Part shown: positions 6,407-48,487 of the stretch, one piece after another
Position numbering within the stretch: position 1 is the first letter of the stretch
Layout of the letters: each line of letters starts with the position of its first letter
Source of the DNA: Vicinamibacterales bacterium
Lineage (GTDB): Bacteria > Acidobacteriota > Vicinamibacteria > Vicinamibacterales > CAVVIG01
Direction of reading: 5' to 3'
DNA: 59,568 bases
Assembly: GCA_035510155.1 (NCBI GenBank)
Contig: DATKHR010000076.1
Location: 1 to 59,568 of the forward strand
Notes under the pieces: model-generated
The model's input: the letters and a program-made list of their open reading frames with translations, nothing else
The model's database searches: none
Told to the model about the DNA's origin: nothing
Position numbers and translations under genes: made by a program

Positions 6407-7727
6407 GGAATTCGGCCGGCGTCTTCGGACCCGAGAGACGACCGTCGAGAAAGCGACGGAAGAGAGCCTGCACCGGATCGAAAACATTGCCGCGCTGAAC
6501 GCGTTCATCCTCGTGATGGCCGACGAGGCGCGGCGGCAGGCCCGCGAGCTCGACAAGGAGCTGGCTGCGGGTCGCGACCGGGGCGCGTTGCATGGCGTCC
6601 CGATCACGGTCAAAGACATCCTGGACATCCGGGGCACCGCCACGACCGCAGCGTCCCGCGTTCGGGACGGCCGCCCCGCCCGGCGCGACTGCCCGGCGAT
6701 CGCGCACCTTCGACAGGCGGGCGCCGTGTTCCTCGGCAAGACCAACCTGCACGAGTTTGCGTTCGGCACGACGAACGAGGACTCGGCGTTCGGGCCGGCG
6801 CGCCATCCGCTCGATGCCACGCGGTCGCCCGGCGGATCGAGTGGCGGTTCGGCAGCGAGCCTGGCCGCAGGCGTCGGGCTGGCGACGATCGGGACCGACA
6901 CGGGCGGATCGATTCGCATCCCGGCCGCTGCGTGCGGCCTCGTCGGCTTGAAGCCGGCCCTCGGCGACGTGTCGTTGGAGGGCGTTGTGCCGTTGTCGCG
7001 AACGATGGACCACGTGGGCCCGCTGGCGCTCAACGTGGCGGACGCGTCGCGGGTCTATCACGCGCTCCTCGGCGATCCGGCGGCGACGCTGCCCGCGCCG
7101 ATGCCCCTGACAGGTCTGCGACTCGCGGTTCCGCGTCCGTACTTCTGCGACCTTCTGGATGACGGGGTGCGCGCCACGTTCGAGGGCGCTCTCGATCGCC
7201 TGCGCGCGGACGGCGCACACGTCGATGACATCGAGATTCATCATGCGCCGGACATCGGAGCGGTGTACCTGCACATCGTGCTCAGCGAAGCGGCGGCGTA
7301 TCACGCGACCTCGCTCGAGGCGGTGCCAGAGCGGTACACGCTTCCTGTGCGACTGCGGCTCGAGATGGGACGCTATGTGCTCGCAGAGGATTACGTGCGG
7401 GCGATGGCCGGCCGAGCCGTGCTGACGCGGGAAGTGGACGCGGCGCTCGCGCAGCATGACGCGCTCATCCTGCCGTCGCTGGCGATTCCGGCGCCGCCAC
7501 TCGGCACCCCGTCAGTCGAGGTCGCGGGGAGGAAAGAGCCTGTCCGCAACATCATGCTGCGTCTGACACAGTTGTTCAATCTCACGGGGCATCCGGCGAT
7601 CTCGATTCCGTCGGGGAAGACGCGGGCCGGGTTGCCCTGCGGGGTGCAGCTTGTGGGCGAACGGCACGAAACGGATGCGTTGCTGAGAGTGGCACTGGCG
7701 TGCGAGGGGGCGATCACGGGGGCGTGA
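6393..7727 (+). CDS. Amidase-signature family amidohydrolase
   Basis: 444 aa. It carries the AS-family core GGSSGGSAASLAAG...TDTGGSIRIPAA and the catalytic Lys region HGVPITVKD. Confidence 0.85.
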   Translation: MISIEEFGRRLRTRETTVEKATEESLHRIENIAALNAFILVMADEARRQARELDKELAAGRDRGALHGVPITVKDILDIRGTATTAASRVRDGRPARRDCPAIAHLRQAGAVFLGKTNLHEFAFGTTNEDSAFGPARHPLDATRSPGGSSGGSAASLAAGVGLATIGTDTGGSIRIPAAACGLVGLKPALGDVSLEGVVPLSRTMDHVGPLALNVADASRVYHALLGDPAATLPAPMPLTGLRLAVPRPYFCDLLDDGVRATFEGALDRLRADGAHVDDIEIHHAPDIGAVYLHIVLSEAAAYHATSLEAVPERYTLPVRLRLEMGRYVLAEDYVRAMAGRAVLTREVDAALAQHDALILPSLAIPAPPLGTPSVEVAGRKEPVRNIMLRLTQLFNLTGHPAISIPSGKTRAGLPCGVQLVGERHETDALLRVALACEGAITGA

Positions 7728-17026: not shown

Positions 17027-18460
17027 CTATGAGAAGGCGTCTGGCGGCAGGACGAGCGGATCGCCCACACCGAGGCCGCCGAGCTCGGCCCCGAACACGT
17101 CGATGTCGCCGACGATGAGTGTCGTCAGGCGGGCGGGGTCAATGTAACGCGTCATGACCCGCGAGACCTCGTCCCGGCTGACGGCTTCGATGCGCGGAAC
17201 AAACTGCGCGTAATAATCATCGGGCAGATCGTAGAGCGCGAGCTGCATCACCGCGCGGCCGATCTGATCGGCTGTCTCGAAATTTCGCGCGTACCCTCGG
17301 GTGAGCGCGGCAACCCCGAATGACAGCTCCTCGGGGGTCACAGGACGCGTGCCGCGGATCCCTTCGATCTCGGCGAGTGACTCATGGATGGCCTGCACGG
17401 TCGCGGCCGTTTGCACGCTGACCTGCAGCACGAAGGGCCCCGGGCGACGGCGGAACTCGAACGCCGTTCGCGCGCCGTAGGTGAATCCTTTGTCTTCCCG
17501 CAGATTGAGATTGACGCGGCTGACGAACTGCCCGCCAAGGATCGCATTCGCGAGCGCGAGGGCGTGGTAGTCAGGCGTGTGTCGCGCGGCAGCAACCTGG
17601 CCGATGCGAAGCTCGGACTGGGGGGCGCGCAATCGCGGCACGACGGCAAGGCGCGGAGGGGCGCTCGGCGCTTGGCCCTTTGTGTTTGGTGCTTGGTGCG
17701 TGGTCCGTCCTTGGTCCCTGCTCGCTGGCGCTGGGCGCTGGGTCCGTCGTCCGTGATCCTCGCCCCAATCGGCGAAGGCGTGGGCGGCGAGCCGGGCCAT
17801 CGCCGAGTGATCGCAGTCTCCGACGGCGATGAGCGTCGCGGCGGCGGGCACAAGCTCGCGCCCATGAAACGACCGCACGTCGTCGATCGTCAGCGACGTG
17901 AGTGAGGCCTCGTTGCCTATCGGGGAATGACCGTATGGATCGTCGCCGTACACGAGCGAGAGGAATGCGCGATCAGCAACCGCGGCGGGGGAATCACGCA
18001 ATTGTTTCAACCGATGCAACCTGAGTTGCCGCACGCGCTCGAAATCGGATTCGCCGAGCGACGGTCGAGCGACGATGTCGCCCACGAGAGGCAGGACGCG
18101 ATCGGTGACGCGGCTGAGTGCCGTCACGCTGATGGCGGTGGCATCCGAGCCGATATCGGTATCGAACTGCGCGCCGAGGCGGGCGAGCGCCTCGTGCATC
18201 TGGATAGCCGACCGACCTCCGCTCCCCTCATCCAGCATGTCGGCGGTGATCGCTGCCAGGCCGTCCTGCCCCGGGGGATCCGCCGCAGCGCCGCGCGTGA
18301 CGAGGAGGATGAGCGAAACCACAGGGACTTGCGGATGGCGAACGGTCCAAACGCGCAGGCCGCTCGGCAAGACGGACTTCTCGACCGGCGGGAACTTGAA
18401 CGTCCGGGCGGGTCCCGGTTCCGGCAACTTCGAGCGATCGGCCGTCAGGGCGCGAGCCAT
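17027..18460 (-). CDS. M16-family peptidase-like protein, probably the non-catalytic partner
   Basis: Pitrilysin-fold sequence without an HxxEH motif. It has a low-complexity insert (...RTQRPAPASRDQGRTTHQAPNTKGQAPSAPP...). ATG 18460 overlaps the upstream TGA by 1 nt; an alternative ATG lies at 18484. Confidence 0.8.
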   Translation of the reverse strand: MARALTADRSKLPEPGPARTFKFPPVEKSVLPSGLRVWTVRHPQVPVVSLILLVTRGAAADPPGQDGLAAITADMLDEGSGGRSAIQMHEALARLGAQFDTDIGSDATAISVTALSRVTDRVLPLVGDIVARPSLGESDFERVRQLRLHRLKQLRDSPAAVADRAFLSLVYGDDPYGHSPIGNEASLTSLTIDDVRSFHGRELVPAAATLIAVGDCDHSAMARLAAHAFADWGEDHGRRTQRPAPASRDQGRTTHQAPNTKGQAPSAPPRLAVVPRLRAPQSELRIGQVAAARHTPDYHALALANAILGGQFVSRVNLNLREDKGFTYGARTAFEFRRRPGPFVLQVSVQTAATVQAIHESLAEIEGIRGTRPVTPEELSFGVAALTRGYARNFETADQIGRAVMQLALYDLPDDYYAQFVPRIEAVSRDEVSRVMTRYIDPARLTTLIVGDIDVFGAELGGLGVGDPLVLPPDAFS

Positions 18461-19764
18461 CAGGACACCGCGATCGGCTCGCATCCCGCGGCCGCAAGAT
18501 CGTTTCGGCCGCGCGGGACGATGCTGAGGGTTACGCGCGCGGAGGGATCGAGATAGCGTGAAGCAGCCTGGCGCATGGAGCCGGGCGTGACATCGCGATA
18601 GCGCGCCAGGTCGCGATCGAAATACGACGGGTCGCCTTTAAAGACATTGTAAGCGTTGAGCTGGTCGGATTTTCCGCCAAAGCCGCCCACTGTCTGGAGG
18701 CGGAAGATGAACTGCGACTCGGCTTGAGTGTGCCCGCGGTCCATCTCATCATCTGTGGGTCCATCTGTGACGAGACGACGGATCTCGTCGAGCACGGCCG
18801 CTTCAAGCTCGTCGAGCCCGTGGCCTGGCGCCGCGGTAGCCACGACCTGTGTATAGCCCCCGATCTCCCGTGAATTCTGCGCGGCGGACACGTCGGTCGC
18901 GCTTCGCTCCTCGAAAACCAGGCGGCGGTACAGCCTCGATGTCTTGCCATTGGCGAGGAGATCGTTTGCCAGGTCGAGGTCCGCGTCGCCCTCCGCGAAC
19001 ATTGCGGGCGTCGGCCACGCCATGTATATCCGCGGCAGCTCCACCCGATCCTCGAGCGAGTACCGGCCCTCGCGCGGCCGGGACGACGGGGCATTCACGG
19101 CAGGGACGAGCTCTCCCGGCGGGATCTCACCGAAGTACCGATCCACGAGCGCGAGCGCGTCGCCCGGATCGACATCGCCCGCGATCGCGATCGAAGCGTT
19201 CGCCGGATGATAGTAACGCTGAAAGAACGCGCGCACGTCGTCAAGGCGCGCGGCCTGCAGGTCGGCGATCTCGCCGATCGTCGTCCAGCGATACGGGTGG
19301 TCCGGCGGGAACACCGCGGCCAGCATTGCCATTGGGGCGAGCCCGTACGGTCTGTTCTCGTAGTTCTGCCGCCGCTCGTTCAACACGACGTCACGCTGGT
19401 TGGTGAACTTGGCCTCGGTCAGCGCCGGCAGCAGATAGCCCATGCGGTCCGACTCCATCCACAGCGCGAGCTCCAGGGCGTTGGACGGCACGACTTCCCA
19501 ATAGTTCGTACGGTCGGCGTTGGTCGATCCGTTGAGTGTGCCGCCGGCGCCTTGCAGCGGCTGGAAATAGCTCTGGTCATGGTGCGCAGATCCTTCGAAC
19601 ATCAAGTGCTCGAAGAGGTGGGCGAAGCCGGTGCGGCCCGGCTGCTCATTCTTGGATCCGACGTGATACCAGATGTTGACGGCAACAATCGGGCAGGCGT
19701 GGTCCTCGTGGATCAAGACGTCGAGGCCGTTGGCGAGAGTGTGCTTGATGAAGGAGAGTGGCAT
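18460..19764 (-). CDS. M16-family zinc peptidase (catalytic subunit)
   Basis: 434 aa with the inverted zincin motif HLFEHLMFEG. Confidence 0.9.
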   Translation of the reverse strand: MPLSFIKHTLANGLDVLIHEDHACPIVAVNIWYHVGSKNEQPGRTGFAHLFEHLMFEGSAHHDQSYFQPLQGAGGTLNGSTNADRTNYWEVVPSNALELALWMESDRMGYLLPALTEAKFTNQRDVVLNERRQNYENRPYGLAPMAMLAAVFPPDHPYRWTTIGEIADLQAARLDDVRAFFQRYYHPANASIAIAGDVDPGDALALVDRYFGEIPPGELVPAVNAPSSRPREGRYSLEDRVELPRIYMAWPTPAMFAEGDADLDLANDLLANGKTSRLYRRLVFEERSATDVSAAQNSREIGGYTQVVATAAPGHGLDELEAAVLDEIRRLVTDGPTDDEMDRGHTQAESQFIFRLQTVGGFGGKSDQLNAYNVFKGDPSYFDRDLARYRDVTPGSMRQAASRYLDPSARVTLSIVPRGRNDLAAAGCEPIAVS

Positions 19765-21690: not shown

Positions 21691-22077
21691 TCAAGCGTCC
21701 GGCAGGAACAGGCGTTTTCCGCGTTCGTTCAGGAGGATCCAGAGCGCGTAGATGCCGAGCGCGGTGCCGTAAGGCAACAACACAAGGTCAACGGATCCCA
21801 GGATCAGCGCCATGATGCGCCCCCACGGCCGCCGTCGCCGCAGCGGAAAGCCGACGACAATGTGTGCGGCGCCCCAGAGGATGGCAATGATGGCGAGCAG
21901 CGTGAAGATGGCGGCCGTGACGCTGGCGGCTACCTGACCACTTGCGCCGCCGCGACCTGCGGACGTGATGATCGCGACCGCACCGATGCCGAGCGCCAGC
22001 GTCGACAGACCGATCAACGTCGTCAACAGTCCCCAAACGATGAAGAGCACGCCTAGAAACTCTACTTGCGTCGCCAT
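21691..22077 (-). CDS. Integral membrane protein, unknown function
   Basis: 128 aa with four hydrophobic segments and good G/C third-position bias. The ATG at 22077 is preceded directly by the heptamer array and has no SD. Confidence 0.6.
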   Translation of the reverse strand: MATQVEFLGVLFIVWGLLTTLIGLSTLALGIGAVAIITSAGRGGASGQVAASVTAAIFTLLAIIAILWGAAHIVVGFPLRRRRPWGRIMALILGSVDLVLLPYGTALGIYALWILLNERGKRLFLPDA

Positions 22078-22079
22078 TC

Positions 22080-22177
22080 GATTGCGGATTGCGGGTTGCG
22101 GATTGCAGATCGAGGGCTGCGGAATGTGGATTGAGGATTGTGGATTGCGGAGTGAAGATTGAGGATTGGAAATTGTG
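22080..22177 (+). repeat. Degenerate heptanucleotide tandem array, 14 units (consensus GATTGNG on the plus strand)
   Basis: Read in register: gattgcg gattgcg ggttgcg gattgca gatcgag ggctgcg gaatgtg gattgag gattgtg gattgcg gagtgaa gattgag gattgga aattgtg. Confidence 0.9.
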
Positions 22178-22188
22178 GTTCTGGAAAC

Positions 22189-22590
22189 TCAGATCGCGGC
22201 CGGGCGGATGACCACGCGAACTTCGACGCGAACAGCGGGGGCATCAGGTGAGCAGAGACGAAAGCGGAGGCGGGCCCCGTCGGCCACGCCCGGGGGCACG
22301 GACACACGGACGGCGTGGTGCGCCAACGATTCTCCGGTCCCGAGACAGCGGGGGCACGCCTCGGCCCAGGTTTCACCGCGGCCGCCGCACGACGGGCACG
22401 TCGCTCTAACGGGCACCTCAAGCGGCACGATGTGACCCTTCCGGGCCTCGAACTTCGAAACCGACACTTCGGCCAGGAGGACGTCCTGGTCCGCGCGCTC
22501 GCCAAGAAAGCGATCGCGCATGCGTTCAACAACCCGTCCCACGGAAGGGAAGTCGATGTCAATTTCGTCCGCGAAACACTCGTGCGGCAT
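22189..22590 (-). CDS. J-domain-less DnaJ-like protein (CXXCXGXG zinc finger plus DnaJ C-terminal-type beta domain)
   Basis: CPSCGGRG and CPRCLGTG zinc-finger repeats, followed by VRVSVPPGVADGARLRF. Start set at ATG 22590 (MPHECF...); the track start at 22671 is also possible. Confidence 0.6.
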   Translation of the reverse strand: MPHECFADEIDIDFPSVGRVVERMRDRFLGERADQDVLLAEVSVSKFEARKGHIVPLEVPVRATCPSCGGRGETWAEACPRCLGTGESLAHHAVRVSVPPGVADGARLRFRLCSPDAPAVRVEVRVVIRPAAI

Positions 22591-22603
22591 GTGAGCGCAA
22601 TTA

Positions 22604-22632
22604 ACGATAGAAGTGGGTTTCACGCTTGTCAA
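22604..22632 (-). promoter_or_regulatory. Sigma-70-like promoter TTGACA-17 nt-TATCGT
   Basis: The minus strand reads CTTGACAAGCGTGAAACCCACTTCTATCGTTAATTGCGCTCACATG. The -10 ends 13 nt before ATG 22590. Confidence 0.35.
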
Positions 22633-22909
22633 GACAGGGGCGGGATGTCTGATGGCGTTGACATCCGACAAGAATCATGCCCTGACGAGAACCTTGCAAG
22701 TGACGGAAAGATGAGTTTCGTGAACGTCAGAACGTCGTGCGTGTGTCCGGCAATACGAATGCCATGATGATCACATTCGAGGGCCGCCTCCGCCTGGACA
22801 CACCGCCGCCCGCTCGGACACACCTTATGCGACCGCGTGAATGGCTGCGACTATTTCGAGGAGGCCGAAGAGCGAACCTGACGAACGGTCGAGGAAGACC
22901 GGCGCACGC

Positions 22910-23406: not shown

Positions 23407-26400
23407 CTACTCGGAACTTAACGGTCCGAAGTCGTCGACGAGTGTTGCCGTGACCGGCGGCAACGGCAGGCGTCGCGGCTCGCCGTCCCAGCGAGGCGCC
23501 CCGATCACGTGTCGGACGCCACTCGGCCCTGTCCAGCAAGGCTGCTCCCCGCGCGCGGCGACAACAAACAGGTTCTTCAACTCGTCGGGAAGTACGTCGG
23601 CGAGGCTGCCGCGCCCCGCGCGACACCTGCCTTCCTGAACCGTTGCGGAGAGGTACAACCGATCGCGCGCTCGCGTGAGCGCAACATAAAGAAGGCGTTT
23701 GGTCTCTTCCCGCTCGCGAGCCGACGCATCCTCGTCCGCTTCGGACTGATAGTCGGCGATGGCGACGAACGCGTCGCCTCCGGCTTCGGCAACACGAATC
23801 GGGGGGCGGATGGCGCCGGTGCCACGGCCCATGTTGACGACGAAGACGATCGGAAACTCGAGGCCCTTTGCGGCGTGCACCGTCATCAGGCTCACGGCGT
23901 CCACCGCGTCAATCGCGGCATTCGATTCATCACCGAGGGCGAGCCGCTCGAGGTAGTCCGCAAGCCGCGACAACGTCGCGTATCCGCGGTTCTGCGCGCG
24001 GCGGATCATGGCGCGGAACTTCTTGAGGTTCTCTCGTGCTTGCCGGCGGCGCGTTCCGCGCAGCTCGTAGGCGTAGGCGGTCTCGCGGATCACAGCGTCG
24101 AGAAGGTCGGACGGCGGCTGCCTGTCAACGCGCGCGAGCCACTCGGGAACACAAGCGCGCAGCAGATCCAGCACGCGCCGATCCTCTGTGCTCAGCCTTA
24201 CTCGGTTTGCATTGGCAGGCCACGACGGGTCGAGGATCGCGTCGGCCACGCGCGGAGACAGCGCGGCGAGGGCGTCATCGGACAGCCGCACGAAGCGCGA
24301 TCTCAGAAACGATGACGCCGCGAGGTCGGAAAGCGGATCGGCAAGGTACCGAAGCAAAGCGACAGCATCCTGCACCTCGTCGGAGTCGAAGAAGCCGAGG
24401 CCCTTGTAAACGTAGGTCGGGACGCCACGGCGGGAGAGGGCCGCCTCGAATTCCCGGTGACTGTCGCGCGATCGAAAGAGAATCCCGACATCGGCTGGCC
24501 GCGCGACACGACGCAACCCTGTCAGCCGATCGCGGACGAATGAACCTGACAACAGGGCGACGATTTCGTCCGCCGCTCGATCGGCGGCTTGGCTCACCGA
24601 CTCGCCTACGATCACCGCGAGTGGGGCCGACGAGCCAGCGGAAACAGGAAGGGCAGGATGGGCCTGGAGGGCGGGAGCGGCGGGGCATGCCGAGAAGGAA
24701 GGAGGGGCAATCGGGAAGCGGTCGCGCTCGTCGTAAAGAAATGCATCGCGACGGTTATCACTTGGAGAGCTCCCCTCCGCCGGTAGCGGCGCCCTGCCGG
24801 GGGTCACAATTGCGGCGCACACGTCGTTCACGAACGAGAGAATCTCGGGCGCTGATCGGAAGCTGACCGTAATCGCCCGCCGCGGCTGGCTCGCCGGCCG
24901 GAGCCCTTCGATGAACGCCGCCGCATCCTCGACGAGCCCGACATCCGCGTCGCGAAACCCGTAGATTGACTGTTTACGGTCGCCGACGATGAAGATCGAG
25001 GGCGCGATCGCGTCGGCAGCGGCACCCATGCCTTCGCCCCACGTCTTGACCAGCTGCCGCACCAGCTCCCACTGCGCGCGGCTCGTGTCCTGAAATTCGT
25101 CGAGGAGCACATGCCGGTGGCGGGTCTCGAGGCGAAGGCGACTCTCAGCGAACTCGTCGAGGTCCCTCAACAGCTTGACCGCCCGCTCGAGGACGCCGGG
25201 AAAATCGAGCAGCGCATGCGATTCGAGCGCGCGCTCGTATTGCCGCAGGGCGATCGCGAAGACGCGCCATACGCCGCGTGACATCACGACGTTCAGGTCG
25301 CGGCGGAGGCTGCGGATCGCTTCGGCAACGGACGGCGCAATGGCGGCCGCCGTCCGGCGGTGGCGCTTCCATGCGTCTTCGGTCCGGCAGTCGGTGGCGT
25401 TGAAACCAGTCCCGGCAAAGTGCCTGCCGCGCGGGTCACCGTCCTGCTTCAGAAAGTACGCGCGGAGGCGATCGATGAAGTTGCGGAAGGCGGCTTGTTC
25501 TTCGCGGCGTGAGAACGAAAGGGCATCATCGTCAGGCGAGAGCGGCGTGACGAGACCTGCAATGTCGGCGGCCAGCATCGCAAAGGGCGGGCGCTCAGTT
25601 GGCCCGTCGCTCAAGAAGGCCTGGAGGCCGCGGGCCTCAAAGCGGGAGCGTGCTGCGGAGCCAAGGCGTGGCGCGGGAATCGATAGAAAGATCTCGCGCA
25701 GCCGGCCGGCGGCGTTGCGACACGCGACTGCGGCCGTGAGATCTTTCGGGCCCGCAGCAAGGTAGCGGCGGAGCACGCGCGGGGCGACGAGGCGGCGGTC
25801 GATGAGCGCCGCGATGCCGCTTCGAAGGCGGCGCTCGCCCAGCTGGGCAAACAGAAGCGCGACGTCGTCGTCTTCCGCGGCGATGCTGCGGCACATGCGG
25901 AAGGCACGATCGAGGGACTCCTCCATCAGGCGCGGCACGTCGGTGTCGGCAGCCAGCTCGAATCCCGGATCGACGTCCGCCTCGAGCGGGAACTCGCGCA
26001 AGAGCGAGAGGCAGAACGCGTCGATCGTGGAAATGGCGATATCGCCGAGGCGCGATTTCAACTCACGCCATCGACGACGGTCGAGCTCTGACAGACGGCT
26101 CTCTTCGCTCAAGCGATCGACGATGCGCTGCCGCATTTCGGCCGCTGCCTTGCGCGTGAACGTAATCGCCAGGATGTTCTCCGGGTCGACGCCGGCGCGT
26201 AGGAGGTTGACGTAACGCTCGACGAGAATGCGCGTCTTCCCCGTGCCAGCCGAAGCCTCGAGGACGATGTTCTGCGTGGGATCGACGGCGGCAGAGCGGG
26301 CGTCCTGGTCAGAAAGTGATTCAGGATTTGGGATTAGGGACTCGGAATTTGGAATCTGGGACTCTGAAGTCGCGATCTGGATTGCCACGCCGCCGCGCTG

Positions 26401-26469
26401 CGGATCCGGATCCGCTTGCGTGCCGGGGTCGTCGTCGAATGGCAGCCGAAGCTCAGACGTCACCGACAT
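23407..26469 (-). CDS. UvrD/AddA-like superfamily-1 helicase without a recognisable C-terminal nuclease domain
   Basis: Walker A EASAGTGKTR, DEFQDT and LLYVALTRARDRLYLS. The protein ends about 90 aa after motif VI. ATG 26469 overlaps the upstream gene end by 17 nt. No canonical start exists downstream of the heptamer array. Confidence 0.85.
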   Translation of the reverse strand: MSVTSELRLPFDDDPGTQADPDPQRGGVAIQIATSESQIPNSESLIPNPESLSDQDARSAAVDPTQNIVLEASAGTGKTRILVERYVNLLRAGVDPENILAITFTRKAAAEMRQRIVDRLSEESRLSELDRRRWRELKSRLGDIAISTIDAFCLSLLREFPLEADVDPGFELAADTDVPRLMEESLDRAFRMCRSIAAEDDDVALLFAQLGERRLRSGIAALIDRRLVAPRVLRRYLAAGPKDLTAAVACRNAAGRLREIFLSIPAPRLGSAARSRFEARGLQAFLSDGPTERPPFAMLAADIAGLVTPLSPDDDALSFSRREEQAAFRNFIDRLRAYFLKQDGDPRGRHFAGTGFNATDCRTEDAWKRHRRTAAAIAPSVAEAIRSLRRDLNVVMSRGVWRVFAIALRQYERALESHALLDFPGVLERAVKLLRDLDEFAESRLRLETRHRHVLLDEFQDTSRAQWELVRQLVKTWGEGMGAAADAIAPSIFIVGDRKQSIYGFRDADVGLVEDAAAFIEGLRPASQPRRAITVSFRSAPEILSFVNDVCAAIVTPGRAPLPAEGSSPSDNRRDAFLYDERDRFPIAPPSFSACPAAPALQAHPALPVSAGSSAPLAVIVGESVSQAADRAADEIVALLSGSFVRDRLTGLRRVARPADVGILFRSRDSHREFEAALSRRGVPTYVYKGLGFFDSDEVQDAVALLRYLADPLSDLAASSFLRSRFVRLSDDALAALSPRVADAILDPSWPANANRVRLSTEDRRVLDLLRACVPEWLARVDRQPPSDLLDAVIRETAYAYELRGTRRRQARENLKKFRAMIRRAQNRGYATLSRLADYLERLALGDESNAAIDAVDAVSLMTVHAAKGLEFPIVFVVNMGRGTGAIRPPIRVAEAGGDAFVAIADYQSEADEDASAREREETKRLLYVALTRARDRLYLSATVQEGRCRAGRGSLADVLPDELKNLFVVAARGEQPCWTGPSGVRHVIGAPRWDGEPRRLPLPPVTATLVDDFGPLSSE
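26318..26387 (+). repeat. Degenerate heptanucleotide tandem array, about 10 units (consensus GATTNGG), inside the helicase coding sequence
   Basis: gattcag gatttgg gattagg gactcgg aatttgg aatctgg gactctg aagtcgc gatctgg attgcca. It is translated on the minus strand as ...ATSESQIPNSESLIPNPESLS... Confidence 0.85.
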
Positions 26470-29400
26470 AATCCTTCCGGCAGACCGTTGAGTAGCCGCA
26501 GGTCTCACACCGGTACACATCGTCGGGCGCGGGTGGAAACTGACCGTGGGCGATGGCGTCAATGGTCTGAGCCAACCGGTCCTGCGCCTCGGCCAGCACT
26601 TTGTCGCGATCCGCGTCGCTTTGAAAGAGCGGCACGACGCGTCTTGGGCCTTTGAACGCCAGATAGGCGGCCTCGCTCATTGACCAGTCGCCGCCTCGAT
26701 TGGCGCGCAGCCACTGCTCCGCGCACAGACTATAGACCGGCAGCTGGAGTGCCTTCTTGCGATCGGGCGGCCACCCCAGCTTGTAATCAACGAGCCGGAA
26801 CGTGCCGTCAGCAAGGAGATCGACCCGATCCGCCTTTCCCCGCAGCGCGATCCTTCTCGGGCCGCCGGACGTCGTAAAGGTGAACTCGCCACGCAGTTCG
26901 TGTTCCAGCAAACGGTCGATGACGGGGATGGGGCGCTCCGCTTCCATGCGCATGACTGCTTCGCCCAGGCCGGCGGCAGCGGGAGAGCCGAGGAGCCGGG
27001 TGCGCTCAAGGCCGGCTTCGGCGCCGGGCAGCTCAGTCAGCTTCCGGTCGACGACGGCGGTGAACATGCGGCGGGCCTCGTCGATGTTGTTGGAGTCGAT
27101 CGCGCCGTATCCCGCGCTCTGCCATGCCGCGAAGAACTCTTCGAACACCTCGTGAAGAAATTGTCCCTGGCGACGCGGATCCATGACCTCTTCGTCATCC
27201 GGTTCTTCGTCGAGCTTCAAGATGTGTTGAGCGAAGAAGCGAAAGGGGCAACCCAGGTAGGTTTCGAGAGCGCTGACCGACCACGGGCGAACATTTCGGT
27301 CGAGTGAGCCGGGTTGGTCGACTGCCGCGGTGAGCACGCCGTGATATTGCGCCGAATCACACGGCGTGCGGGACGCGCGGAGCGAAGCCCACGCCTGGGC
27401 GCGCGGGTCGAGGGGCGCGAAGGATACGGGGTCGAGCGACAACGCCTCGTCCATAAAAACTCTGGAGGCGAGGGTTGCGCCCGCCGCGGGTGCCGCGGTG
27501 GGGACCCCCGCGCCCCGCCGCACCGCTGGTGCCGCGGTGGGGACCCCGGCGTCGAGCAGCAGCGATCGCCACACGAGGGCGTCGTCGTCCAATGTAAACG
27601 TCGAAAGGATCGTTCGCCGCGACGGCGAGGCGACGAGATCCTGAAAATTGGCCTCCGCAGATGCTTGCCGCTCCCTCTCCGACGGCCAGCCCAAGGCCTT
27701 CAACAGCGAAGATGGATAGAAGATGTTTCGCTTCGGACGCTCGGGCCACTCAGGCTCGATCAGGCCGACGACCGTGAGGTCGTCGAAGTCGCCGTAGCGG
27801 GCAGCGTTGTCGTCGAGCAACTGGAGCCCTCGATCGGCGGGGTCGACCTCGACCGTCTGCTCCTCGATCCAGCGGCGTACGGCGAGCGCCAAGTCTTCGA
27901 CCGTCCATGACGGGTCGTCGTGCGTCGCGTGAACGGCCGCGAGCGCGTTCAATGTGTCGCTAATGGCGGCGCGAGCTCGGCGCTCCCGTGATGCAAGCTC
28001 TGTCCGGTCTCCGTCAATCGATCGCAGATGCCGCTCCCAGAATGCGGCCAGGTGACGCACGTGGACCGATGCTCGTGCCTGCTCGGCGAGGGGTGCCAAT
28101 TCCCGTGTGACGCGGATGGCGAGATGCAGCGCGGGAGCCGACCTCGCGTCCTTCCACGTCTCCGCAAATGTCCCAAGGCGAGCGGGATCGCCGAGATACC
28201 GGGCGGCACTTAGCGCGCGATCAAGAGCGGCGACGGCCTCGCGCGAGACGCCTTCACCCTCACCGTTACCCACGCCTCCGATCTCGCTGCTCTCACGGTC
28301 GAGCGTGAAGCGGAAGTGTGGCGACCGCAAAAGCGCGACAGTTGTTGAGCGCGTAAAATTCGCTTCAACTGCCTCCAGAATCAGATCGAGGGCGGCAGAG
28401 GTCGGCTCGGCTGCCAGCGGCAACGTGTCACCGGTCTGAAAGGGAATGCCCGCGGACCCAAACACGTCGCGAGCCAGGTACAGGTACGGCAAGGGGCGCT
28501 TGTACACGACACCGACGCGATCAAGCGCGACGGATGAGCCGTTTCGGCGATCAGACTTCAGCTGGCGGGCGACGGCCACGAGTTCTTCTTCGCGGTCGCG
28601 ATACGTGGACCAAGGTTCGTGCGATTGCCCGGGCGACTGCGTTCCAGAGGCCCCGCCTCCGTTGGGCCCGAGCTGCGTTCCAGAGGCCCCGCCCCCGTTG
28701 GGCCCGAGCGATTTCCACTCGACTTCGTCGATCCCGGGCAGCCAGGTGTGCAGGCGCTGGTGGAAGCCCGACTGCAGCAGCTTTTCAGTCGCGATGACGT
28801 CAAGGAACTCGAGCCCCGGAATGCGCGACAGGAGATCGAAATCAGCGACGAACAGACCTTCAGCGCTGGCAATCCAGTCGGCGAGGGTGACGATGATGTG
28901 GCGCACCGGGTGGGGCGACGGCTCCGCGATGAGCTGTTCGCGCAGGGTGTGCTCGTCGCAGGCCCCCGATTGGTGAACACGACGCTCATACTCACGGAAG
29001 GCATCAGCCAAGAACTGAGTCTGCTGGCGCATACGGCGTGCGCCACGATCTATGTCGAGATCCAGGGGATCCGGCGAGCGATCGCTCGAGCCCAGCGCTG
29101 TCTGGATCAGCTCTTCGAAACGCGTGACGGATTGTGATTGGCGGCGCAGGTGATCGTAAAAGCGAAGCATCTCCGCGATCAGCCCGAGCCTGAGCCTGAT
29201 GCGCCGTTCAATCGGCGCGCAGGCGGACCGAGCGCTTGCCTGGGCGATGACGTCGCGCTCGATGACGGTCAGGCGGCGTGGGGGCTGGCCAAGGCGCGCG
29301 TGGAAGAGGTCGTACAGCTCATCGCGAGTGACTGGAGCCGGGCCGGCGACGTGGGTCAGGTCGGTTGCACGGAGCTGGCGGGCCGGGTCGGGCCCGTGAA

Positions 29401-29611
29401 ACTGGCGCGTCGGGCCGGTCGCCGGGGTCGGACCTGCGATTGACGAGTTGGCGCGGAATTGATGCCAGGAATGCAGTAACTGGCGGCCCGCAGCGCGAGT
29501 AGGAACGACAACAATTGTGGTCGGAGTTGCGAGATTTGCGATCGCGCGGCGGAAGCCGCGCAGATCCGGCACGCGCACAAGCCGCGTCCGGCGTGGGGTG
29601 GTCACGGCCAC
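26453..29611 (-). CDS. AddB-like PD-(D/E)XK nuclease/inactive-helicase subunit with C-terminal Fe-S cysteines
   Basis: YLGCPFRFFAQH...GKADRVDLL...LVDYKLG...CETCGYSTVC (one plus three Cys around the nuclease motif). Start set at GTG 29611, 1 nt after the upstream TGA; GTG 29605 is also possible. Confidence 0.8.
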   Translation of the reverse strand: MAVTTPRRTRLVRVPDLRGFRRAIANLATPTTIVVVPTRAAGRQLLHSWHQFRANSSIAGPTPATGPTRQFHGPDPARQLRATDLTHVAGPAPVTRDELYDLFHARLGQPPRRLTVIERDVIAQASARSACAPIERRIRLRLGLIAEMLRFYDHLRRQSQSVTRFEELIQTALGSSDRSPDPLDLDIDRGARRMRQQTQFLADAFREYERRVHQSGACDEHTLREQLIAEPSPHPVRHIIVTLADWIASAEGLFVADFDLLSRIPGLEFLDVIATEKLLQSGFHQRLHTWLPGIDEVEWKSLGPNGGGASGTQLGPNGGGASGTQSPGQSHEPWSTYRDREEELVAVARQLKSDRRNGSSVALDRVGVVYKRPLPYLYLARDVFGSAGIPFQTGDTLPLAAEPTSAALDLILEAVEANFTRSTTVALLRSPHFRFTLDRESSEIGGVGNGEGEGVSREAVAALDRALSAARYLGDPARLGTFAETWKDARSAPALHLAIRVTRELAPLAEQARASVHVRHLAAFWERHLRSIDGDRTELASRERRARAAISDTLNALAAVHATHDDPSWTVEDLALAVRRWIEEQTVEVDPADRGLQLLDDNAARYGDFDDLTVVGLIEPEWPERPKRNIFYPSSLLKALGWPSERERQASAEANFQDLVASPSRRTILSTFTLDDDALVWRSLLLDAGVPTAAPAVRRGAGVPTAAPAAGATLASRVFMDEALSLDPVSFAPLDPRAQAWASLRASRTPCDSAQYHGVLTAAVDQPGSLDRNVRPWSVSALETYLGCPFRFFAQHILKLDEEPDDEEVMDPRRQGQFLHEVFEEFFAAWQSAGYGAIDSNNIDEARRMFTAVVDRKLTELPGAEAGLERTRLLGSPAAAGLGEAVMRMEAERPIPVIDRLLEHELRGEFTFTTSGGPRRIALRGKADRVDLLADGTFRLVDYKLGWPPDRKKALQLPVYSLCAEQWLRANRGGDWSMSEAAYLAFKGPRRVVPLFQSDADRDKVLAEAQDRLAQTIDAIAHGQFPPAPDDVYRCETCGYSTVCRKDYVGDV
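27489..27546 (-). repeat. Imperfect 39-nt in-frame duplication inside the AddB-like gene
   Basis: The core ggtgccgcggtggggaccc occurs at 27489 and 27528. It encodes AGVPTAAPA twice. Confidence 0.7.
28637..28708 (-). repeat. 36-nt x2 in-frame tandem duplication inside the AddB-like gene
   Basis: The unit ctgcgttccagaggccccgcc(t/c)ccgttgggcccgag occurs twice with one mismatch. It encodes LGPNGGGASGTQ twice. Confidence 0.9.
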
Positions 29612-29612
29612 G

Positions 29613-31007
29613 TCACTGAAGTTGAGGGGGACGCAGCAACGACCGGATATCCTCACGCGCGCGCGCGCCAAGCATCAGGGCGCCGGCGGCGGCGGACGAC
29701 GCGTTCCAGGCGCGGCCCATATCGTTGGCGAGCGTGGCTTCACGCCTCACGATGACCGCGCTCGAGGCAAGCTGCGCGGCGCTCACCATAAGAGCGTGGG
29801 CGGCGGCCAGCTCCTCAGGCGGACCAATTCTCGCCAGCAGCTTCAGAAGCAAGGACACACGCTGCTCCAGTGAGGCGAGCGAAGCCGGCGACGAGCCGGC
29901 AAGCGCTTTGATGTCCTCCAGGGACGGCCTGAGCTGCGCGAAGAGTGCGATCGGCGCGCGAATCGCAGTACTGTAAGCCACGAACGCCGGAAGCCGCAGC
30001 TCCCAGTGATCGCGTGCCAGGCGAAGACGCCGGGTGGCGTCGAGCTTTGCCTCGAGAGTCTTGACGAGCGTGCTGACGGCCTCCGGGCGCTGATAGCCCA
30101 GCTCGGCGTCGTGCTGCCGTACGCCCGCCAGCAGCCGCTCCACTCCGCGAACGTCGGCCAGGGCGGCTCGCCGATCAACTGCCGCAAGCGTGCCGGTTGC
30201 CAGCGCACTATAGGAACGGTCGATCTGGAGCTCCACGTTCAGGGCCGCTTCCACCTCTGCTCTCTTTGTCGCGACAAAAGCGGAGGGGAGCTCGCCCTTG
30301 TCGCGCTCAATGACGCCGAGCGCTGTAGAGAGAAGCGAGGTTCGCTCGACCGAGCTGTCGATGACTCGCGCGGCGTTGAGCACCTGCTCGATCCCCTCGC
30401 GCAAGGTGAGCGGCGGCAGCAGCGGCTCCGTGATGGCCGGTGGATCGACGAACGCCGACAGGCTGAGATCGAACTGGGTTTCGCCGGAAGCCGCTCGGAG
30501 ATCGGCAATCGCCTCATCGAGCATGCCCACCATCTGTCGCACTTCGGCCTGACGATAGTTGTAGTGCCGCTGCGGCCAGTCGGCGAGGAGCGACCGGGCG
30601 CGCTCGACGATGGCGAGGCGGTGGGCGGGACTCGACGTGGTCGCGACGTCGTCGAGCGCCTGGGCGAGCTGCTTGGTCAACGCGGCGTAGTCGAGTTCCG
30701 CTTGCCCTTTCAGGTAATGAGCGGCGCGGGCGGCGTTTGCGTAGCGGTCGGTGCGGTCCCAGTCGACGCGCTCGGCGGGCAGGTTCACGAGGTGGAGCGG
30801 AGGGTTCGGCGTAACCGCGGTCGGCATTGAAAAAACGACGCGGTCACCGACGCGGGCGGGCTCGCCGTAGCTCACGAGCGACGTCCCGTCGCGGAGAAAG
30901 ATCCGCAGCAGCGTCGCGTCCTCTTCGGCAGCGGCCGCCGGCGCCGCCGGCATCGGCAACAGCAGGAGCGCCGATAGCGTGGCAGCCGACCACGTTCGAC
31001 TGTTCAT
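29613..31007 (-). CDS. Secreted protein of unknown function (first gene of the AddB/helicase operon)
   Basis: 464 aa with a signal-peptide-like N-terminus (ATLSALLLLPMPAAPAAAAEE), a small beta-rich region and then a long Ala/Leu/Arg-rich helical region. No family recognised. Confidence 0.7.
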   Translation of the reverse strand: MNSRTWSAATLSALLLLPMPAAPAAAAEEDATLLRIFLRDGTSLVSYGEPARVGDRVVFSMPTAVTPNPPLHLVNLPAERVDWDRTDRYANAARAAHYLKGQAELDYAALTKQLAQALDDVATTSSPAHRLAIVERARSLLADWPQRHYNYRQAEVRQMVGMLDEAIADLRAASGETQFDLSLSAFVDPPAITEPLLPPLTLREGIEQVLNAARVIDSSVERTSLLSTALGVIERDKGELPSAFVATKRAEVEAALNVELQIDRSYSALATGTLAAVDRRAALADVRGVERLLAGVRQHDAELGYQRPEAVSTLVKTLEAKLDATRRLRLARDHWELRLPAFVAYSTAIRAPIALFAQLRPSLEDIKALAGSSPASLASLEQRVSLLLKLLARIGPPEELAAAHALMVSAAQLASSAVIVRREATLANDMGRAWNASSAAAGALMLGARAREDIRSLLRPPQLQ

Positions 31008-31088: not shown

Positions 31089-31341
31089 ACGGACAGGTGA
31101 AATTTTTTTTGGGGCGGCGCCGCTCCTTGTCTGAACCCCCCTCTGATCTGTGCGCGAGCTTTCGTGCGTCGCTTCGCTTGGATCCCGATCGAACGATGCG
31201 TAAAATCCGTTGCTCGCTTCTCGGAACAGGTTGCTCGGACTCGGAGCTCGCTCGTCGTTGCTCGAGCTCGCTGGCCGGAGCTCACTGCCGGGGGGCTCGT
31301 TGCCTGGTTGTTACTCGATATTCGTCAGATTTCACCGCGCT

Positions 31342-31572
31342 GTGGCCGCAGACGTTCATCGCTATCAAGAGTCCATCGCGGGACACCCGTACCTCATCGA
31401 AGTCATGGCGGTGTCGGAGGATCGCTGGCGCGCGTACATCGTTCGCATTCCCGGCGTCCCCACGGCGCTGATGCCGTTTTACGGTCCCACGCCGACGGAG
31501 GCGGCGCGCCAACTCCGCGACTGGCTGACCCGCGCGCATCAGCAGGCGGCCTCGCCGGCCGGGACAGTGTAG
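31342..31572 (+). CDS. Small protein (about 76 aa) ...HPYLIEVMAVSEDRWRAYIVRIPGVPTALMPFYGPTPTEAARQLRDWLTRAHQQ...
   Basis: This is the 3' part of track ORF 31210..31572, whose upstream part is low-complexity CTCG-repeat translation. GTG 31342 is chosen as the start; ATG 31405 is an alternative. Third positions are G/C-rich. The stop lies 11 nt before the S9 peptidase GTG. Confidence 0.4.
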   Translation: MAADVHRYQESIAGHPYLIEVMAVSEDRWRAYIVRIPGVPTALMPFYGPTPTEAARQLRDWLTRAHQQAASPAGTV

Positions 31573-31583
31573 GATCGGGGGGC

Positions 31584-32621
31584 GTGACCGCCCCTCTGTT
31601 CAAAACCCGCGCGGCGTGGGTGACTCTTGCACTTACCATCGCCGCCACGCCGCTCGTCAGCGGCCAGCTTCAGCCGCCACGCGTACCCGATTTCGACCGC
31701 ATGCTCAAAGAGCAGGCCGCCACCGACGAGGCGTGGCGAGCTGCCAGCGTTGGTTACATGCAGATGGACAAAATCACCTACCGGAGCCAGGTGGGTGACA
31801 TGGATATTCCGGCGTTTGTCTTTCAGCCCTTAAAGCTGCGGGGCGCCAAGGGGCATCCGGCCATCGTGTGGGTCCACGAAAACATCCGCGGCCATCTTTA
31901 CGAACACTACATCCCGTACATCCGCGAAGCCACGGCGAAGGGGTATGTGGTCATCGCGCCTGAGTACCGCGGGAGCATCGGCTATGGGAAGGCGTTTTAC
32001 GACGCGATCGACTACGGTGGGGCCGAGGTGGACGATGTCGTCACGACGGTCGAGGTGCTGAAAACGAAATACCCCCAGGTCGACTCCGCGCGCGTGGGGA
32101 TCATCGGGTGGAGCCACGGCGGGATGATTACGCTCCTGTCGATTCTCCGGAACCAGACGATGTTCAAGGCTGGGGTTGCGATGGTGCCGGTGACAAACCT
32201 GTTTCAGCGTCTGGCGTGGAAGGGGGTTGAGCGGCAACATCAGCTGATTGATCCGGCGAACCGGTACGGCGGTTTGCCGTCCGAGAGGCAGGACGTCTAC
32301 AAAGAGCGCTCGCCGCTGTACAACGTGGACAAGCTGCAGATTCCGCTCTTCGTGGCCGTCACTCGGAACGATGAAGACGTCAACATCGAAGAGGACATGC
32401 AGCTCGTGGATGCGTTGCGTTCGAGGAAGCCGCAACTTGCCGAAACGGTTGTATACGACAACCCGCCAGGGGGGCACACGTTCGATCGTCGCGTCGATTC
32501 CAAGACGTGGCAACCTGAAAACACGCGCGAGCAGCGTGACTCGTGGAATCGTGTCTGGACATTCCTCGATTGGAACCTCGATCCGTTTCACTCAGCAATG
32601 ATGGCTCCCGGGACGAAGTGA
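31584..32621 (+). CDS. S9-family serine peptidase / alpha-beta hydrolase (prolyl oligopeptidase catalytic domain), secreted
   Basis: Nucleophile elbow IIGWSHGGMI, a signal-like N-terminus (AAWVTLALTIAATPLVSG), and GTG 31584 with AGGA 10 nt upstream. The track ORF start at 31164 is shadow. Confidence 0.8.
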   Translation: MTAPLFKTRAAWVTLALTIAATPLVSGQLQPPRVPDFDRMLKEQAATDEAWRAASVGYMQMDKITYRSQVGDMDIPAFVFQPLKLRGAKGHPAIVWVHENIRGHLYEHYIPYIREATAKGYVVIAPEYRGSIGYGKAFYDAIDYGGAEVDDVVTTVEVLKTKYPQVDSARVGIIGWSHGGMITLLSILRNQTMFKAGVAMVPVTNLFQRLAWKGVERQHQLIDPANRYGGLPSERQDVYKERSPLYNVDKLQIPLFVAVTRNDEDVNIEEDMQLVDALRSRKPQLAETVVYDNPPGGHTFDRRVDSKTWQPENTREQRDSWNRVWTFLDWNLDPFHSAMMAPGTK

Positions 32622-32645
32622 AGGGGATTCGGGATTCGGGCTGCG
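32622..32645 (+). repeat. Three-unit heptamer run forming the whole spacer between convergent genes
   Basis: aggg gattcgg gattcgg gctgcg lies exactly between TGA 32619-32621 and the minus-strand stop at 32646-32648. Confidence 0.7.
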
Positions 32646-33290
32646 TCACTCGGTCGGCGCGCGGAACTTACCGGAGCGCTTCACGACCTCGTCGGTAACC
32701 GCACGGGCAGCTTCCTGCAGCGCTTTCCCCATCGGAGTTTTCATCCACGAGCCGTCGCCCACGTCGAACGCCCCGAGGCTCGTTGCCATGTCGGTGCCGA
32801 CGCCGGTTTCTGATCCCTTCCCTTCCACGTCGAACGAATCGACCACTGCGCCGGCTGATGGGCTCACGAGATCCATGTGGAGGGATACGGTTGCAGTGGA
32901 ACGATTCACTCTGCCGCTGACGCCGGTGCCGAACACCGAAGTACTGAGGCCCTTCGAAGACTGCGAGACCGAAGCGTCGACGACGATGCCGACGAGGACG
33001 ATGTCGACGTTCGACTGAGCACCGAGCGACGCTGCCTGCGCCGGCGGGAGCGGCGAGGACGCACCCGAAGGCGGCGTCAACAGCTCCGGGGCGAGCTTAT
33101 GGCTCTTGATCATCTCCACGCGAACGAGCTTCGCCAGGGAGCGGCCCGCAGCGTCAGTCGCGCCGTTCACGCTCACGACATCGAACGGCAGGATACCCGC
33201 TCGCAACGGCGCATCGGCCGCAAAAGCTGACGCGATCAGCGAGAGCGCCAGTGCTGTGCGAAAGAGTGAAGTCATGTCCTTTCTGAACAT
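32646..33290 (-). CDS. CsgG/LpoB-like periplasmic (lipo)protein
   Basis: Signal peptide, then a pattern resembling the CsgG family: AGILPFDVVSVNG...SLAKLVRVEMIKS...DIVLVGIVVD...ATVSLHMDLVSPSAGAVVDSF...ALQEAARAVTDEVVKR. The call is by recollection. Confidence 0.5.
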   Translation of the reverse strand: MFRKDMTSLFRTALALSLIASAFAADAPLRAGILPFDVVSVNGATDAAGRSLAKLVRVEMIKSHKLAPELLTPPSGASSPLPPAQAASLGAQSNVDIVLVGIVVDASVSQSSKGLSTSVFGTGVSGRVNRSTATVSLHMDLVSPSAGAVVDSFDVEGKGSETGVGTDMATSLGAFDVGDGSWMKTPMGKALQEAARAVTDEVVKRSGKFRAPTE

Positions 33291-48025: not shown

Positions 48026-48037
48026 TAATATTAGAGC

Positions 48038-48487
48038 ATGATTGATTCTCGAGTGCAACCAGGGTCACAGCCCGAAGGCGCTCACCTGGTCCTGTACGAC
48101 GGCATGTGCGGCCTCTGCGACCGCCTCGTGCAATTCCTGCTGACACACGACCACCGCCGTGTCTTCAATTTCGCTTCGCTCCAGAGCGCGACCGGTCAGG
48201 CCATGCTCGAGCGGTACCGCCAGGATTCTCGCGATCTGACCTCGTTCTATGTTGTGGCGAACTATCGAACGCCGGATTCCCGTCTCTTCATGAGAAGTGA
48301 CGCCGCGCTTTTCGTGGCAAGCGAACTCGCGTGGCTGTGGAAGGCGATGCGCCTCGTGCGCCTGGTACCGAAGGGAGTCCGTGACCGCGTGTACGACCTC
48401 GTGGCTCGAAATCGATATCGCGTCTTCGGCCGGCACGAACAGTGTCTGATGCCTCGTCCGGAGTTCCGAAGCCGATTCGTCGACTGA
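48038..48487 (+). CDS. DCC-family thiol-disulfide oxidoreductase (DUF393)
   Basis: LYDGMCGLCD motif near the N-terminus; 149 aa. Confidence 0.8.
   Translation: MIDSRVQPGSQPEGAHLVLYDGMCGLCDRLVQFLLTHDHRRVFNFASLQSATGQAMLERYRQDSRDLTSFYVVANYRTPDSRLFMRSDAALFVASELAWLWKAMRLVRLVPKGVRDRVYDLVARNRYRVFGRHEQCLMPRPEFRSRFVD

Follow-up and report, generated by a model that had tools for sequence, protein, structure and literature searches.

The repeat array at positions 22080-22177 of a 59,568-nt stretch of contig DATKHR010000076.1 (the window), from a Vicinamibacterales bacterium, is a heptanucleotide microsatellite, a member of the class of 7-bp simple sequence repeats (SSRs) that is over-represented in many bacteria. 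It lies between two co-directional minus-strand genes, which encode a DnaJ-like protein and a DUF308-like membrane protein, and it represents a new phylum and a new unit for a repeat class that is already described. On balance, the array probably arose by slippage and serves as a passive leader that is tolerated in one orientation.

The 14 units are contiguous and head-to-tail. Read on the plus strand from 22080, they are GATTGCG, GATTGCG, GGTTGCG, GATTGCA, GATCGAG, GGCTGCG and GAATGTG, followed by GATTGAG, GATTGTG, GATTGCG, GAGTGAA, GATTGAG, GATTGGA and AATTGTG. The exact unit GATTGCG occurs three times (at 22080, 22087 and 22143) and GATTGAG twice (at 22129 and 22157), and the consensus GATTGCG is matched at 80 of the 98 bases (82%). 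Tandem Repeats Finder (TRF) reports 22080-22168 as a period-7 repeat of 12.7 copies (score 80), and also calls a period-21 super-repeat over the same interval (score 94). The sliding period-7 self-match of the array peaks at 27/35, whereas 50 shuffles reach 24 at most. With at most one mismatch, the dimer pattern GATTNNGGATTNNG occurs 14 times where 3.3 are expected, and none of 100 shuffles reaches this number. The in-register reading, TRF and the shuffles all bear out the original prediction of a degenerate 14-unit period-7 array, and head-to-tail 7-bp units beyond chance are what defines a bacterial heptanucleotide SSR.

The spacer between the two genes spans 22078-22188 (111 nt), nearly all of it array, as had been claimed; the stop codon of the DnaJ-like ORF (open reading frame), 22189..22671(-), reads tca on the plus strand. 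The proposed closeness of the array to the DUF308 start codon also stands, but the distance is 2 nt by coordinates and not 3 nt. The sense RNA of the array is (CGCAAUC)n. GGAG, GAGG and AGGA are all missing from the sense strand of the spacer, leaving the DUF308 gene with no Shine-Dalgarno (SD) motif there, in agreement with the predicted leader lacking a purine-rich SD. No promoter-like or terminator-like site was found within 22078-22188. The predicted shadow ORF 22062..22562(-) does translate the array, reading ...SAIHNPQSTFRSPRSAIRNPQSAIEWRRK, and is spurious, since its frame differs from that of the conserved DnaJ-like gene with which it overlaps. Since such arrays contain no stop codon on either strand, they give rise to shadow ORFs and to low-complexity peptides of the 'SAIRNPQ' type.

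Independent assemblies reproduce the array. The 1-kb region around it was found in at least 24 soil-metagenome runs, and independently assembled contigs from five of these runs (X1, X3, X4, X5 and X6) span the array from end to end, free of differences and gaps; a contig from run X10 differs from the window only outside the array. The concern that the array might be an artefact of assembly, raised together with the original prediction, is not borne out by these contigs. Two related strains, seen as lower-depth contigs with roughly 90% flank identity to the window, have shorter arrays: one is without 22106-22154 (49 nt, or 7 units) and the other without 22093-22134 (42 nt, or 6 units). At the level of consensus contigs, these variants amount to the unit-number polymorphism between strains that characterizes SSRs. 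Pure (GATTGCG)n 31-mers, the words on 22080-22110, have an assembler depth of about 300-900 in runs X1-X10, compared with 7-25 for the genome of the window, and the GATTGCG type of array is therefore very common across the soil community. One metatranscriptome contig corresponds to 22140-22299 with 0 differences, and runs from the DnaJ-like gene over its stop codon into the array.

The DnaJ-like protein has homologues in 80 Vicinamibacterales/Acidobacteriota loci (best match 80% identity), and by this sequence similarity the window belongs in the Vicinamibacterales of the Acidobacteriota. About 60 loci retain the DnaJ-like/DUF308 gene pair, and the start position of the DUF308 gene is conserved among the orthologues. 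Many of the more distant relatives have genes that overlap by 4 nt or are set apart by a few nt, which is typical of translational coupling; many of the closer relatives have a spacer of 15-104 nt made of heptamers. In the nearest species of the collection, L001 (80% protein identity), the spacer is 18 nt. Several relatives have units that differ from that of the window by one or two substitutions within the register ATC-NGC-N: ATCCGCA in the window, ATCTGCA in L012, ATCAGCA and ATCAGCG in L013, and ATCAGCC in L002, L007 and L020. Other spacers have unrelated units (CTAATCC in L021, GCCCTGA in L026, TTTTCAC in L029, CTGTCGA in L016 and AAGTCTC in L017). Throughout the heptamer-filled spacers that were inspected, the start codon follows within about 30 nt of the array, no SD motif is present, and G on the sense strand is never above C, with C exceeding G in all except L016. 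This history may be read most simply as that of an old array, growing, shrinking and homogenising new variants of its unit, alongside some newly born arrays.

Two spacers of this locus have features of their own. At L015 6111-6135 the spacer is CCCCCAGTCCCCAGCCCCACG, with CCCCAGT units; CCCCAGT is the unit of the cyanobacterial repeat STRR1 (short tandemly repeated repetitive sequence). In L025 the spacer contains an 855-nt insertion (6417-7273) with heptamer-like repeats at its beginning and, as seen by eye, a terminal inverted repeat TAATGCCGTTCGGAAATTC ... GAATTTCCGAACGGCATTA at both ends; it looks like a miniature inverted-repeat transposable element (MITE) or an insertion sequence (IS) remnant.

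Period-7 arrays are frequent in the Vicinamibacterales. The census covered 957 kb, consisting of the 80 related loci and the window rather than one whole genome, and it counted arrays with at least 5 copies and at least 72% self-match. Period 7 is represented by 58 arrays, and no other period from 4 to 15 by more than 15 (15 arrays of period 4, 6 of period 5, 8 of period 6, 12 of period 8, 4 of period 9, 1 of period 10, 4 of period 11 and 2 of period 12). Shuffles of the 957 kb yielded no arrays for periods of 6 or more. TRF finds 75 arrays of period 7 in the same sequence, along with 20 of period 8, 9 of period 9 and 5 of period 6, a density of about one heptamer array per 13 kb. The excess of period 7 over neighbouring periods is thus the one expected of the SSR class. 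The idea of a repeat family, which depended on recurrence in relatives, holds, as the period-7 class recurs far beyond chance. The units of the relatives are diverse (CGCAATC, CAGCCAT, CCCTAAT, GGAACCC, GACGATC, CCGTTAG and many others), and about two-thirds of the arrays are intergenic by a crude gene call based on GC content at third codon positions (GC3). One array per 13 kb would mean several hundred in a several-megabase genome, in one of the most abundant soil lineages.

Similar arrays exist in other phyla. An exact scan with (GATTGCG)4 gave at least 120 matches, as did a stop-free control heptamer of equal composition, (GTTCGAG)4; the multi-phylum figures given here are for the arrays and loci among the matches listed. 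(GATTGCG)4 is present in at least eight phyla, with matches in Acidobacteriota, Planctomycetota, Verrucomicrobiota, Gemmatimonadota, Chloroflexota, Bacteroidota, Armatimonadota and some Proteobacteria. The control has another taxon mix, and since this arbitrary unit is equally widespread, the idea that GATTGCG is a specially widespread cross-phylum unit was rejected. In viral contigs, the counts are 21 for (GATTGCG)4 and 7 for the control. The GATTGCG locus set contains 85 period-7 arrays versus at most 10 of any other period, and the control set 56 versus 28 of period 6 and at most 8 of the rest. A perfect 16-unit (CGCAATC) array is found in a cultured gammaproteobacterium, Stagnimonas aquatica (L160 1211-1339, NZ_RJVO01000003.1), 23 nt upstream of a gene beginning MTEILILYYSRNG, and may be an experimentally tractable example.

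The orientation of the arrays follows the neighbouring genes. Coding-like ORF starts downstream of the array end were scored on both strands with the crude GC3-based gene calls. For starts within 30 nt of (CGCAATC)n in high-GC loci, the array is C-rich on the sense strand in 34 cases versus G-rich in 8 (p 7e-5). The control (CTCGAAC)n gives 21 versus 10 within 30 nt (p 0.07) and 33 versus 14 within 60 nt (p 0.008), and unselected arrays of any unit give 54 versus 33 within 60 nt (p 0.03). A first orientation test, with crude intergenic calls and all units, had found no bias (25 versus 21); the bias surfaced only after gene starts beyond the array ends were scored on both strands. Among high-GC loci, 26 arrays have convergent genes on their two sides and 8 have divergent ones. 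A tie between orientation and replication was rejected, as the G-C skew of the array agrees with the GC skew of the flanks, a rough proxy, in 52 of 89 cases.

Several of the (CGCAATC)n arrays of other phyla stop directly before a gene. In L199 the array ends 2 nt before nusB, with a junction CGCAATCgaATG identical to that of the window, and in L171 it ends 4 nt before a response regulator gene. In L133 and L134 the array overlaps the ATG, and genes of L091 and L110 also have arrays close to a start without an SD (0-10 nt). L094 and L168 have arrays that stop 4 nt before the hisF ATG, with the common junction CGCAATCgaaaATG. Other arrays are apparently translated, such as the TadE-like N-terminus in L151, the prepilin leader in L148 and the AddA loops in L010 and L016.

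Neighbouring arrays no more than 700 nt apart are inverted in 51 cases and direct in 15. Where inverted pairs are less than 150 nt apart, the G-rich arm precedes the C-rich arm in 28 of 30; examples are L020 6937-7042, L033 6832-6935, L158 3889-4015 and L171 2766-2905. This arm order cannot reflect the direction of replication, because the arrangement reads alike on both strands. Close inverted pairs sit between co-directional genes in 16 cases, convergent genes in 7 and divergent genes in 1.

The sense RNA of the 151-nt region folds at -22.4 kcal/mol, with the array mostly unpaired in the centroid, and the antisense RNA at -43.8 kcal/mol. The fold z-scores are -0.13 and -0.34 for the two strands and, being near 0, indicate no selected structure. 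A structured RNA was rejected on these z-scores together with 0 Rfam matches at the gathering score in the whole window and the lack of any tRNA or tmRNA. A G-quadruplex was rejected as well, since GATTGCG and its variants have no GGG run. Among the crude start calls, an SD core is present at -18 to -5 in 51 of 482 genes, and the control window gives 44, which hints weakly at low SD use in the Vicinamibacterales.

The likeness to known SSRs is close. A survey of bacterial SSRs with units of 5-11 bp, dated 2007, is reportedly by Mrazek et al. in PNAS. PMC4692102 credits a 2007 survey, its reference 33, with the excess of heptameric SSRs across bacteria and with the idea that the active-site footprint of the polymerase favours 7-nt slippage. 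The arrays described here share with the long heptameric SSRs of bacteria their head-to-tail 7-bp units, mostly intergenic location, large number per genome and variable copy number, the preference for period 7 over neighbouring periods, and free-living hosts with large genomes. An open-access literature search found no paper linking heptanucleotide repeats with Acidobacteria and none with the unit dimer CGCAATCCGCAATC, and heptamers go unmentioned in a 2025 survey that covers short tandem repeats throughout the tree of life.

The heptamers of Xanthomonas (GGGAATC) and Nostoc (GGGGA(T/C)T) described by Rehm et al. 2015 (PMC4692102) are intergenic, with the G-rich strand as the non-coding strand upstream of genes and as the coding strand downstream of them, and they are rare between divergent genes. 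The same study reports inverted convergent pairs, sister species that keep the gene neighbours while repeat length and sequence are altered, and transcription of the repeats. Placement rules, positional conservation with sequence change, and inverted pairs are all found again here. Xanthomonas, with a GC content of about 65%, is also a high-GC host. The suggestion in the original prediction that no equivalent is described for high-GC genomes therefore fails, as the GGGAATC heptamers have like placement rules (PMC4692102). The Xanthomonas and Nostoc units differ in having runs of three or four G, forming G-quadruplexes in vitro and preferring a copy number of 4, whereas GATTGCG has no G-run. 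Since GATTGCG follows the published strand rules without quadruplex potential, the rules do not need G-quadruplexes. This argues that the transcript, through its G/C asymmetry, is the source of the strand and placement rules, and that quadruplexes are not.

In Beggiatoaceae, cyanobacteria and Bacteroidetes, TAACTGA heptamers adjoin SD-less start codons (MacGregor 2015, PMC4679880), and a role in translation was proposed for them, with S1, cold-shock or CsrA-type binders suggested. As here, they are contiguous forward heptamers a few nt before the start, over the position of an SD, and some lie inside ORFs. The array of the window has this forward placement without an SD, at 2 nt, but its unit is CGCAATC and not TAACTGA. 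The TAACTGA repeats further differ in having 2-6 copies per set in the BOGUAY genome (with longer arrays elsewhere) and one dominant unit in Beggiatoa, whereas the units here are highly diverse; TAACTGA also contains stop codons and CGCAATC none on either strand. The STRR class was defined for heterocystous cyanobacteria, and the comparison with it made in the original prediction is apt. The STRR repeats of Calothrix and Nostoc are likewise dispersed intergenic tandem heptanucleotides with several unit families per genome; they differ in phylum and unit repertoire from the repeats of the Vicinamibacterales host. Heptamer repeats near start codons in Nostoc are reported to affect recF and recO reporters (bioRxiv 10.1101/2022.06.06.494920). 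In Haemophilus influenzae the (ATCTTTC)n repeat of hmw1A/hmw2A is a transcribed heptamer of the 5' untranslated region that forms a hairpin cut by RNase III and acts as an expression rheostat (PMC12721329). It resembles the array of the window as a heptamer SSR upstream of a gene that is transcribed, G-poor in sense and changing by whole units; it differs in pairing with a G-rich region as a long hairpin and in belonging to a host-adapted pathogen, and here no such partner or structure is seen.

The reading that we favour, and regard as somewhat more probable than its rivals taken together, is that the array is a slippage-born microsatellite, transcribed within an operon and tolerated in its G-poor sense as a passive, SD-free leader. 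Slipped-strand mispairing by whole units would have grown it inside a formerly overlapping or minimal junction of two translationally coupled genes. The array would be transcribed over its whole length as an intercistronic part of the operon mRNA, and would serve passively, with no dedicated binder, as a leader or spacer that has weak structure and no SD. The DUF308 ATG may be used by structure-free initiation (of the ribosomal protein S1 type) or by re-initiation. Selection would act mainly as a filter: next to a start, the only orientation tolerated would be the one that is G-poor, weakly structured and free of an SD, and the (CGCAAUC)n orientation may be kept because its RNA has little structure and puts no SD-like or G-rich stretch by the start codon. 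Behind stop codons the G-rich form would be permitted, and it would form hairpins where it pairs with its complement. Strains would come to differ in copy number by whole units, and species in the sequence of the unit.

Several points weigh against slippage and passive tolerance. Slippage alone leaves the preference for period 7 over 5, 6 and 8 unexplained. Arrays recur at the DnaJ-like/DUF308 spacer in many lineages and before hisF (L094 and L168), a recurrence that could reflect positive selection for a function. The 28/30 arm order is explained only partly by the passive model or by a rule that the C-rich form precedes starts. The RNA evidence is a single unstranded contig of depth 3.7, which covers the stop-proximal third of the array and may stem from DNA carry-over, and the crude GC3-based gene calls bring error into the gene-start counts.

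A dedicated translational element would account for some of these points, and is the alternative that we take most seriously, although we hold it to be unlikely. The array would then be a selected leader for SD-independent initiation, bound by the ribosome or by a protein, for which ribosomal protein S1 and a protein with a cold-shock domain and a 7-nt footprint (approximately) are candidates; the binder would set the period while the unit drifts. Consistent with this are the 2-nt distance to an ATG without an SD, the many (CGCAATC)n arrays 0-10 nt before SD-less starts in other phyla, the strong sense-strand bias, the scarcity of SD cores (51 of 482 crude starts, 44 in the control) and the conserved presence of an array at the DnaJ-like/DUF308 spacer while its unit changes; there are also precedents in the TAACTGA proposal (PMC4679880) and the Nostoc reporters (bioRxiv 10.1101/2022.06.06.494920). 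However, DUF308 orthologues with overlapping genes or a 0-20 nt spacer have neither array nor SD, so the array is not needed. In co-directional spacers, the sorted distances from the array to the upstream stop and to the downstream start look similar; arrays do not lean towards the start and simply fill the spacers. The units are extremely diverse, which fits no sequence-specific binder, an arbitrary control heptamer is just as widespread, and no binder is known for any heptamer class. Much less probable is a Rho-loading, rut-like site that attenuates transcription into the DUF308 gene when translation is slow and so sets the ratio of the two genes. Rut sites are C-rich, G-poor, unstructured untranslated RNA of about 70-100 nt, and the sense RNA here has C well above G, little structure and about 100 untranslated nt; the spacer has no intrinsic terminator, and the orthologous spacers are C-rich on the sense strand. 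Yet arrays stand directly before essential operon genes, where efficient termination would be harmful. Within an inverted pair, transcription reaches the C-rich arm after the G-rich one and the two can pair immediately, quite the reverse of an exposed rut site, and the published preference at 3' ends is for the G-rich form on the coding strand (PMC4692102).

The whole-unit length variants of related strains would also suit a contingency (phase or rheostat) locus, in which unit number tunes expression of the membrane protein as in the hmw (ATCTTTC)n repeats of H. influenzae, which the array further resembles in lying upstream of a gene, apparently transcribed, in a G-poor sense. The chance of this is slight, since the same 14 units are found in contigs of five independent soil samples, giving no sign of rapid switching at the consensus level. 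The arrays of relatives adjoin housekeeping genes of all kinds, a contingency role was judged negatively for the Xanthomonas and Nostoc heptamers by Rehm et al. (PMC4692102), and the array lacks a partner with which it could form a hairpin like that of hmw (z-score -0.13). We consider very improbable an element that acts as DNA or as antisense RNA, be it a protein-bound or non-B duplex or a (GGAUUGC)n transcript of the plus strand acting as a sink for CsrA or another protein that binds GGA. Many units do bring GGA every 7 nt on the plus strand, and in the Vibrio cholerae ctxAB promoter contiguous (TTTTGAT)n heptamers are reported to recruit transcriptional regulators (bioRxiv 10.1101/2021.05.14.444153). 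Against it, the array has no G-runs and hence no G-quadruplex, no promoter-like site is found nearby on the plus strand, relatives use units without GGA, and orientation follows the transcription of the adjacent gene and not the flank GC skew (52 of 89). Short reads can mis-assemble tandem repeats, but an assembly or sequencing artefact has a practically negligible probability given the array-spanning contigs of X1, X3, X4, X5 and X6 and the occurrence of the class in isolate and complete genomes.

Besides the array and its flanking genes, the window contains other period-7 repeats (Table 1). The product of the upstream gene matches Pfam PF00684 with an E value of 4e-5, under the curated cut-off, and that of the downstream gene matches PF03729 with 7e-5, just under the cut-off.

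Table 1. Period-7 arrays of the window and the genes that flank the array at 22080-22177
Feature	Coordinates	Strand	Context
Heptanucleotide tandem array, 14 units	22080..22177	-	Sense (CGCAATC)n; plus-strand consensus GATTGCG
Degenerate array tail, GTTCTGGAAAC on the plus strand	22178..22188	-	Between the array and the upstream stop codon
Upstream gene, 160-aa protein with DnaJ-type CXXCXGXG zinc-finger motif	22189..22671	-	Stop codon 22189-22191
Downstream gene, 128-aa DUF308-like membrane protein	21691..22077	-	ATG 22077-22075
Related period-7 array, GGATTTG-like on the plus strand	26318..26367	-	N-terminal extension of UvrD/AddA-type helicase
Mini-array AGGGGATTCGGGATTCGGGCTGCG	32622..32645		Whole 24-nt spacer between convergent genes 31164..32621(+) and 32646..33290(-)
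Degenerate period-7 array, sense ACCAAGC-like	17655..17731	-	Inside M16 peptidase ORF 17027..18484(-)

Of the related arrays that had been predicted, all in plus orientation, those at 26318-26367 and 32622-32645 were found, but the one at 23389 amounts to about two loose units and was recovered by no scan. The plus orientation shared by the arrays at 22080 and 26318 is explained by the relevant gene being on the minus strand, with the G-poor form as sense; this does not apply to the site at 32622, which lies between convergent genes and has only three G-tracts. The array at 26318-26367 is translated in frame as SESQIPNSESLIPNPESL, and in our own reading of the sequence it must be coding, because no in-frame start codon lies between the array and the GKT motif. 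Among the relatives, AddA orthologues have internal (CGCAATC)n arrays (L010 ~2675-2734, L016 ~3107-3170, L021 ~446-502 and L007 ~3316-3366) that directly precede a conserved AAFRxxIDRLRAYF segment, the in-frame reading in L016 being ...NPQSAIRNPQSAI...; the unit of the intergenic array of the window therefore also serves as a coding loop insertion. The array at 17655-17731, which was absent from the original prediction, encodes a low-complexity insertion PAPASRDQGRTTHQAPNTKGQAPSAPP inside the span matched by the M16_C domain.

Two further features of the window are of other kinds. A near-perfect 36-nt tandem duplication at 28637-28709 (2.0 copies, 97% match, TRF score 139) lies inside a large AddB-like ORF, 26453..29671(-), and encodes LGPNGGGASGTQ twice consecutively. 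At about 48000-52000 the cumulative GC skew climbs steadily to a maximum near 48-50 kb and then declines, and local GC falls to 0.58 at 50-52 kb; the skew may switch in this region, or the segment may be foreign in composition.

A bolder and rather improbable reading is that period-7 arrays are bacteria-wide, orientation-dependent cis-elements whose period is set by a footprint of about 7 nt, such as that of a cold-shock domain or an S1 OB-fold. If true, arrays in the G-poor sense would be platforms for SD-independent initiation before genes, and the inverted pairs with the G-rich arm first would be 3'-end or insulator hairpins behind them. Such a footprint would explain the preference for period 7, the persistence of arrays with changing units at the DnaJ-like/DUF308 junction, and the 28/30 arm order.

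For annotation, spurious array peptides such as that of ORF 22062..22562 need to be separated from apparently translated ones, such as the AddA extension, the M16 insertion and the pilin/TadE-like leaders. The new points are the series of junction states, the whole-unit variants between strains, the strand rules without quadruplex potential and the asymmetry of arm order. In the large genomes of free-living bacteria, few unexplained non-coding features are commoner than heptamer microsatellites, and the DnaJ-like/DUF308 locus provides a clean natural series, from overlapping genes through short spacers to a 14-unit array, with unit turnover and strain variants.

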